Virus record (IMG/VR): IMGVR_UViG_2671180821_000007
From: a virus
Lineage: Duplodnaviria > Heunggongvirae > Uroviricota > Caudoviricetes
Direction: 5' to 3' (one strand)
Length of the DNA stretch: 11,368 nucleotides
Shown: positions 9,049 through 9,834 of the stretch, one piece after another
Numbering within the stretch: the first letter of the stretch is position 1
Layout: every line of letters begins with the position of its first letter
Notes under the pieces: model-generated
Databases searched by the model: none
Told to the model about the DNA's origin: nothing
Seen by the model: only the letters and a program-made list of their open reading frames with translations
Program-made: the position numbers and the translations under genes

Positions 9049-9057
9049 AACCATGCT
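9049..9057. repeat. IS1 target-site duplication, left copy (AACCATGCT)
   Basis: Identical 9-mer at 9826..9834 immediately flanking the other IS1 end. Confidence 0.9.
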
Positions 9058-9072
9058 GGTAATGACTCCAAC

Positions 9073-9576
9073 TTATTGATAGTGTTTTATGTTCAGATAA
9101 TGCCCGATGACTTTGTCATGCAGCTCCACCGATTTTGAGAACGACAGCGACTTCCGTCCCAGCCGTGCCAGGTGCTGCCTCAAATTCAGGTTATGCCGCT
9201 CAATTCGCTGCGTATATCGCTTGCTGATTACGTGCAGCTTTCCCTTCAGGCGGGATTCATACAGCGGCCAGCCATCCGTCATCCATATCACCACGTCAAA
9301 GGGTGACAGCAGGCTCATAAGACGCCCCAGCGTCGCCATAGTGCGTTCACCGAATACGTGCGCAACAACCGTCTTCCGGAGACTGTCATACGCGTAAAAC
9401 AGCCAGCGCTGGCGCGATTTAGCCCCGACATAGCCCCACTGTTCGTCCATTTCCGCGCAGACGATGACGTCACTGCCCGGCTGTATGCGCGAGGTTACCG
9501 ACTGCGGCCTGAGTTTTTTAAGTGACGTAAAATCGTGTTGAGGCCAACGCCCATAATGCGTGCAGTTGCCCGGCAT
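9073..9576 (-). CDS. insB: IS1 InsB (transposase catalytic part, normally made as InsAB' by frameshift)
   Basis: Protein ...[90 protein letters not shown]... matches IS1 InsB. Confidence 0.95.
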
Positions 9577-9770
9577 CCAACGCCATTCATGGCCATATCA
9601 ATGATTTTCTGGTGCGTACCGGGTTGAGAAGCGGTGTAAGTGAACTGCAGTTGCCATGTTTTACGGCAGTGAGAGCAGAGATAGCGCTGATGTCCGGCAG
9701 TGCTTTTGCCGTTACGCACCACCCCGTCAGTAGCTGAACAGGAGGGACAGCTGATAGAAACAGAAGCCAC
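9495..9770 (-). CDS. insA: IS1 InsA (transposition repressor / N-terminal part of transposase)
   Basis: 91 aa [43 protein letters not shown]... matches IS1 InsA. Confidence 0.95.
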
Positions 9771-9825
9771 TGGAGCACCTCAAAAACACCATCATACACT
9801 AAATCAGTAAGTTGGCAGCATCACC

Positions 9826-9834
9826 AACCATGCT
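9826..9834. repeat. IS1 target-site duplication, right copy (AACCATGCT)
   Basis: Identical to 9049..9057. Confidence 0.9.

Follow-up and report, generated by a model that had tools for sequence, protein, structure and literature searches.

Gram-negative PICIs are laid out as an integration zone (int and alpA), a Bro zone, a replication zone, and a late zone (PMC10111431). In EcCICFT073 and EcCIMP1, the island cycle is activated by AlpA, which is needed for excision and transfer and activates its own expression, and transcription of alpA is induced by the helper phage, not by the SOS response. The alpA reporter used for EcCIMP1 spanned -449 to +50 (PMC6092414, PMC11773190). PICIs are regarded as a family separate from P4 (PMC6092414). 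In P4, vis, which belongs to the AlpA family, opens an operon under positive control and is followed there by a Bro/eta-type gene and the primase (PMC10111431).

The 11,368-bp stretch of DNA analysed here (the window) has the PICI layout, with int at the end of the island and int, alpA, and primase all on the minus strand (Table 1). The alpA product is 100% identical to AlpA of an E. coli relative, and the full-length int product shares 95.9% identity with that of a relative. In E. coli, the related islands lie between clpS and yljB/cspD and measure about 9.5 to 11 kb. Their gene order is int, alpA, a variable zone of small opposite-strand genes (YlcI/YnfO family), an Icd-like gene, a DUF4222 gene, primase, SSB, and late genes, the late genes being a protease-major capsid fusion or capsid, decoration, and small-terminase genes. 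The annotated genes of the relatives' islands include none for tails or lysis. By gene content and order, the host element is a Gram-negative PICI-type satellite. The packaging content of the window and of its closest relative (L024) consists only of the protease-major capsid fusion gene. Neither has an annotated portal or large terminase gene, indicating that the element is not a capsid-forming PICI (cf-PICI).

The window ends, at position 11368, exactly at the int start codon, so the int-side attachment site of the island lies outside it. Many IMG/VR records of this island family (L031 to L062) have alpA beginning about 1,650 bases from a contig end. This distance is the span of int plus the spacer, and these records therefore appear to begin near int.

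Table 1. Coordinates of the features discussed in the text, as positions in the window.
Feature	Position	Strand	Description
Protease-capsid gene ORFs	1227-2372 and 505-1263	-	Frame changes near 1308
Primase gene	5546-7069, with C-terminal fragment 4015-4287	-	Split by IS600
IS600	4281-5544	-	1,264 bp; duplication ACA at 4278-4280 and 5545-5547; 99.5% identical to annotated copies
alpA	8734-8943	-	69 aa, intact; Pfam Phage_AlpA, E = 1.7e-16
P3, promoter-like	9037..9008	-	TTAAGA-18-TAATAT; 8.4 bits
Left 9-bp target-site duplication	9049-9057		Abuts IS1; one copy in IS-free relatives
Complete IS1 (IS1A-like)	9058-9825	-	768 bp; IRL 9803-9825, IRR 9058-9080
insB' frame, DDE domain	9073-9576	-	Pfam DDE_Tnp_IS1, 131/131 profile positions
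insA	9495-9770	-	91 aa, GTG start; Pfam Zn_ribbon_InsA (zinc ribbon) and HTH_Tnp_IS1, both full length
Promoter-like match inside IRL	9791-9818		CTGCCA-16-TATGAT; 8.7 bits
Right 9-bp target-site duplication	9826-9834		Abuts the other IS1 end
P2, extended -10 promoter-like	9909..9881	-	TTGCGT-17-TG-n-CACGAT; 7.1 bits
P1, sigma-70-like	10029..10000	-	TTGAAA-18-TATTCT; 11.5 bits, best in the window, top 0.004% of sites
int	10130-11368	-	412 aa, intact tyrosine integrase; Pfam Arm-DNA-binding and Phage_integrase

A complete IS1 interrupts the spacer between int and alpA, which in IS-free relatives is about 410 bp of AT-rich, noncoding DNA. The alpA ATG is 105 nt from the left duplication and 114 nt from the end of IS1, and 295 nt separate the right duplication from the int stop codon. 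The element has a GC content of 52.9%, compared with 27% and 35.5% in its two flanks. It reads GGTAATGACTCC / GGTAATGACTCCAACTTATTGAT at its start and GGCAGCATCACC / ATCAGTAAGTTGGCAGCATCACC at its end, with the GGT start and ACC finish of the family. The terminal inverted repeats are imperfect (24 nt and 79% complementary, with arms at 9057-9080 and 9803-9826 according to the repeat tool). IRR faces alpA, and the IS1 genes are co-oriented with int and alpA. Pfam families PF03811, PF12759, and PF03400 are matched over their full length. The A6C motif (AAAAAAC) for programmed -1 frameshifting lies at IS1 position 307 (9513-9519 in the window), and the resulting InsA-InsB' fusion, a 232-aa transposase, is called as a gene product in an identical chromosome (L008). 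The promoter-like match inside IRL, on the minus strand, is presumably IS1's own insA promoter. The element is 99.0 to 99.2% identical over its full length to annotated IS1A-family copies, and near-full-length IS1 is present in 4,951 of 5,426 complete E. coli genomes. Size, inverted repeats, insA/insB' with the A6C motif, 9-bp duplication, and identity all place it in the IS1 family. Its intact frames and ends are compatible with transposition activity.

A perfect 9-bp direct repeat, AACCATGCT, flanks the element. This 9-mer occurs twice in the window, both times at the ends of IS1, where 0.14 occurrences would be expected by chance; the chance of a 9/9 match at two fixed positions is about 4^-9. 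The repeat tool reports a 10-nt repeat, CAACCATGCT, but the additional C is C9825, the last base of IS1, which happens to match C9048. The tenth base thus belongs to IS1, and the duplication is the canonical 9 bp. After deleting IS1 and one of the two repeat copies, we used the resulting 924-bp sequence as a query against complete E. coli genomes. In 317 E. coli genomes, a single place matched 80% or more of this empty-site query; each of the matches listed is one unbroken piece, the best being 98.8% identical. Similarly, alignments of the int-alpA spacers of seven, and later nine, relatives have one copy of AACCATGCT at the exact joint. An uninterrupted spacer with a single 9-mer in more than 300 E. 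coli genomes indicates that the IS1 is an ordinary, intact insertion made by simple transposition. The initial annotation had described an IS1 with an intact 9-bp duplication, produced by a simple transposition event upstream of alpA and downstream of int, and its coordinates and distances, its reading of the duplication, and its mechanism all hold.

The same insertion is found in Shigella sonnei. Over the 7.2 kb compared, the window matches S. sonnei chromosomes, including CP000038.1 (S. sonnei Ss046), with 100% identity. These chromosomes encode the exact 412-aa integrase, and public records already annotate IS1 copies on the chromosomes of S. sonnei. In 8/8 places shown, which stand for 25 contigs with the exact integrase, alpA lies at the offset that includes IS1. 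The exact integrase is present in 1,829 index blocks, 1,460 of which hold only contigs of 5 to 10 kb, and draft contigs stop inside IS1 (L015) or 30 nt into it (L032). Since short-read assemblies break at repeated insertion sequences, we infer that the int-alpA IS1 is fixed, or nearly so, in S. sonnei; it accounts for the breaking of S. sonnei short-read assemblies between int and alpA. When 5,426 complete E. coli genomes were probed with 161 nt spanning the left junction, none gave a match covering 80% or more of the probe. In S. sonnei, IS1 has contributed most to the expansion of insertion sequences, and intergenic DNA carries about three times as many IS insertions per base as genes do (genic-to-intergenic ratio, 0.29; PMC7373316). 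The supplementary tables of that study held nothing usable on the int-alpA insertion site.

Two further lesions affect this copy of the island. IS600 breaks the primase at about residue 506 of 605, with the loss of about 100 C-terminal residues. The ClpP-like prohead protease/major capsid fusion, which is 629 aa long in L024, shifts frame near residue 355 to 360 in the window, and the frame change marks it as a pseudogene. Given the split primase and the frameshifted capsid gene, transfer of this copy seems unlikely. One genome with the same integrase and IS1 (L011, GCA_000783795.2) lacks IS600 and about 700 bp beside it (window 3566-5547); this state looks like an IS600-adjacent deletion and not like an ancestral form. 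At the same chromosomal site, a related island of E. coli AST240 (L025, NZ_AP043633.1) carries an independent IS1B in its primase (6561-7258), indicating that IS hits recur in this island family.

The variable zone of the window is less readily assigned. A minus-strand ORF of 271 aa (7908-8723) begins directly after alpA and has no Pfam match. Small plus-strand ORFs, homologous to hypothetical and YlcI/YnfO-family genes of the relatives, overlap it, as does a plus-strand terminator-like hairpin at 8687-8716. The coding strand of the region 7727-8723 differs between gene callers, and the closest relative has nothing corresponding to positions 7727-8357. A second island class (L026 to L028) has AlpA coding sequences with 86 to 98% nucleotide identity, but the upstream 100 nt are unrelated. 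Two GTGATATCAC palindromes lie in that upstream region, together with a GC-rich hairpin whose T-run finishes at the alpA ATG, which hints at terminator/antiterminator control of alpA in this class. A scan for AlpA in one-genome-per-species contigs returned only two loci, both distant and irrelevant.

To describe what the insertion displaced, we searched the alpA strand of the IS-free spacer for sigma-70-like sites, scored them, and compared 34 distinct IS-free spacer sequences from E. coli genomes and IMG/VR. The consensus matches are designated P1 to P3; as a yardstick, IS1's own promoter region scores 8.7 bits. Of the 34 distinct spacers, 29 retain P1 at 9 bits or more. P2, which lies 46 nt upstream of the insertion point, keeps its -35, TG, and -10 elements and its fixed 17-nt spacing in all 34. 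Its form in the most divergent relatives is TTGAAT-17-TG-n-AACGAT, with the intervening sequence replaced and the key positions kept. P3 keeps at least 6.4 bits in 25 spacers and is degraded in 9. P1 and P2 are the best-conserved candidate elements of the spacer, and P3 is a weaker and less conserved match. Both P1 and P2 now lie across IS1 from alpA. P3 is the sole promoter-like match still adjoining alpA, and the end of IS1 lies 20 nt upstream of its -35 hexamer.

These comparisons agree with the proposal in the initial annotation that alpA has been cut off from its native upstream sequence, since the displaced P1 (29/34) and P2 (34/34) are conserved. The comparison with IS-free relatives, suggested there as a route to the native alpA promoter, yielded the candidates P1, P2, and P3 and did not single out one of them as that promoter. 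Block by block, the conservation of the spacer is a mosaic, with the distal part better kept in some relatives and the proximal part in others, so that a functional block is not identifiable from conservation alone. A further suggestion, that IS1 ends can create hybrid outward promoters, was not borne out in the direction of alpA: the best candidate across the IRR junction, TTACCA-15-TAATTT, scores 4.2 bits, far below P1 to P3. At 9812-9839 on the plus strand, the IRL end and the right duplication together form a hybrid promoter-like site of 7.1 bits (TTGGCA-16-TAAAGG with an upstream TG) that points, in antisense, to the 3' end of int. It does not have the key final T of the -10 hexamer and is probably nonfunctional.

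Several other features of the spacer were examined. A hairpin followed by T6 on the alpA strand at 9911-9938 folds in the window sequence and is the only terminator-like hairpin of the spacer. Its stabilising base, C9922 (plus strand), is unique to the window in a 10-sequence alignment. The hairpin was rejected as a conserved int terminator because its 5' arm varies in relatives without compensating changes; the most divergent relative (L021) has an unrelated hairpin and T-run at the same place. No Rfam family reached its gathering score across the window, and there were zero matches in the int-alpA spacer. The single match elsewhere, to a microRNA model, was far below threshold and was judged to be due to chance. 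A 34-aa plus-strand ORF starting from an ATG inside the duplication is present in close relatives, but its frame is broken in divergent ones, and it was discarded. An N-terminal extension of alpA from a GTG at 9030 (98 aa) was likewise rejected on account of non-multiple-of-three indels in L020 and L023. No conserved ORF was found in the int-alpA spacer among the relatives. The only strongly variable patch of the spacer lies right after the int stop codon (10056-10129, minus strand). It has at least two allelic forms in the relatives and contains AATATC(G) repeats, and in the window this region has a perfect 12-bp inverted repeat (10052-10063 / 10077-10088). The patch could be a protein-binding site.

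Insertions of IS1 classically have polar effects whichever way the element faces, and InsA represses the insA promoter, which is itself weak. From the arrangement of the predicted elements, we think that the insertion probably weakens or abolishes helper-dependent transcription of alpA. A functional-looking IS1 transposed once into the int-alpA spacer of a satellite integrated between clpS and yljB/cspD, in the lineage leading to S. sonnei, placing 777 bp of foreign DNA between alpA and P1/P2. If P2 is the promoter, IS1 would lie at about +40 of the alpA leader. The native sequence still joined to alpA amounts to 114 bp, with P3 as its only candidate promoter. In such islands, alpA heads the operon for excision and replication and is normally turned on by the helper phage and by AlpA itself. 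A helper-inducible signal would then stop short of alpA because of IS1 polarity and the loss of upstream cis-elements, leaving the island less inducible or noninducible. IS600 and the capsid frameshift add to the damage, so the island is a decaying remnant that is probably fixed. The earlier idea that the insertion may alter or abolish induction is thus reasonable and is modestly strengthened by the conservation of P1 and P2. However, since the island is also damaged by IS600 and the capsid frameshift, a loss of induction would not be attributable to IS1 alone. Several points weigh against the proposed loss of helper-dependent transcription: P3, which scores like IS1's own promoter, could be sufficient for alpA; cis-sites for AlpA or for the helper inducer might lie within the retained 114 bp; the conservation of the spacer is mosaic; and, with no intrinsic terminator predicted on the alpA strand within or after IS1, transcription starting in IS1 or farther upstream may partly read through.

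Taken further, the first two of these points would make the insertion neutral, with the helper-responsive promoter and its operators all within the retained 114 bp and nothing important changed by IS1. We consider this less likely. In its favour, at 8.4 bits, P3 is close to IS1's own promoter, and short blocks of the proximal 114 bp (AATTTAAGAGGTG, TATATC-ACAGC, and TATACGTAA-TTTTATGTAGG) are conserved in divergent relatives. Further, the second island class, with a closely related AlpA, has only about 90 to 100 nt of intergenic DNA before alpA, suggesting that a short proximal control region can suffice in the family. The enrichment of Shigella IS insertions in intergenic DNA is also consistent with tolerated sites (PMC7373316). 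However, P3 is the least conserved of the three candidates, being degraded in 9 of the 34 spacers, whereas the key positions of P2 are invariant even where their surroundings have been replaced. The insertion also falls 20 nt upstream of the P3 -35 hexamer, where upstream activator or UP elements would be expected.

There is a slim chance that the insertion was a domestication step, in which IS1 locked the satellite into the S. sonnei chromosome or put alpA under low, InsA-controlled read-through. If the insertion was such a step, the remaining satellite genes could still act on incoming phages, and the S. sonnei island and its IS-free E. coli relatives (98.8% in the spacer region) would offer a natural comparison for mapping the alpA promoter.

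It is very unlikely that the insertion activates alpA, whether transcripts begun at the insA promoter run on into the gene or a hybrid promoter where IRR meets the spacer drives it, in either case without a helper phage. IS1 and alpA are co-oriented with no intrinsic terminator predicted between insB and alpA, and hybrid promoters were reportedly formed by IS1 insertions in the work of Prentki et al. (1986). Promoter formation by IS insertion is also a general principle (PMC3281130). Here, however, the best hybrid at the junction of IRR with the alpA side reaches only 4.2 bits, the insA promoter is weak and InsA-repressed, and IS1 is polar. AlpA overexpression triggers excision (PMC6092414), yet the island and its IS1 are stably present in every chromosome examined, so activation fits poorly with the stable retention of the island.

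Lastly, the idea that IS1 marks a joint of recombination between IS1 copies, or an assembly artefact, is vanishingly improbable: IS copies number in the hundreds in S. sonnei and often mediate rearrangements there (PMC7373316), and the L011 genome shows a deletion beside IS600 in the same island, but the perfect, matching 9-bp duplication and the empty-site alignment, in which both flanks are collinear with the unbroken spacer of hundreds of E. coli genomes, refute it, and the same structure recurs in several independently finished chromosomes.

We return to our preferred reading, in which IS1 reduces or abolishes the helper-dependent expression of alpA. IS1 is the most abundant expanded insertion sequence of S. 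sonnei, and a further copy is of little importance by itself; the finding is already known in kind, as an instance of routine IS expansion and mobile-element decay in Shigella. Its use may lie in the elements that were displaced. P1 and P2 are candidate helper-phage-responsive alpA promoters of the PICI family, and the S. sonnei copy could act as a natural cis-mutant for them.

Compared with EcCICFT073 and EcCIMP1, the island in the window shares the co-oriented int, alpA, and primase genes, the variable zone after alpA, SSB, and a capsid-related late gene. The window copy differs in its IS1 within the alpA control region, its primase gene split by IS600, and its frameshifted protease-capsid gene. 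The sequence upstream of its alpA has no relation to that of EcCICFT073, a comparison by eye finding only a vague resemblance in ACAC repeats. As in P4, with its vis gene and PLL late promoter, an AlpA-family gene leads an operon toward the primase; P4 has P2-type activators and an RNA immunity system, whereas the window has no Rfam family at gathering score. When IS1 or IS5 inserts upstream of bgl or flhDC, an insertion sequence enters an AT-rich control region, and the operon is activated and selected for. The IS1 in the window has likewise altered a cis-context, but here the prediction is insulation or silencing of the downstream gene, and selection is not evident. The element itself is structurally like the IS1 of the IS1A/IS1R type in E. 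coli and Shigella, which also produces a 9-bp duplication in AT-rich DNA. It shows no structural difference from the IS1 population and is one further copy of the expanded set of S. sonnei.
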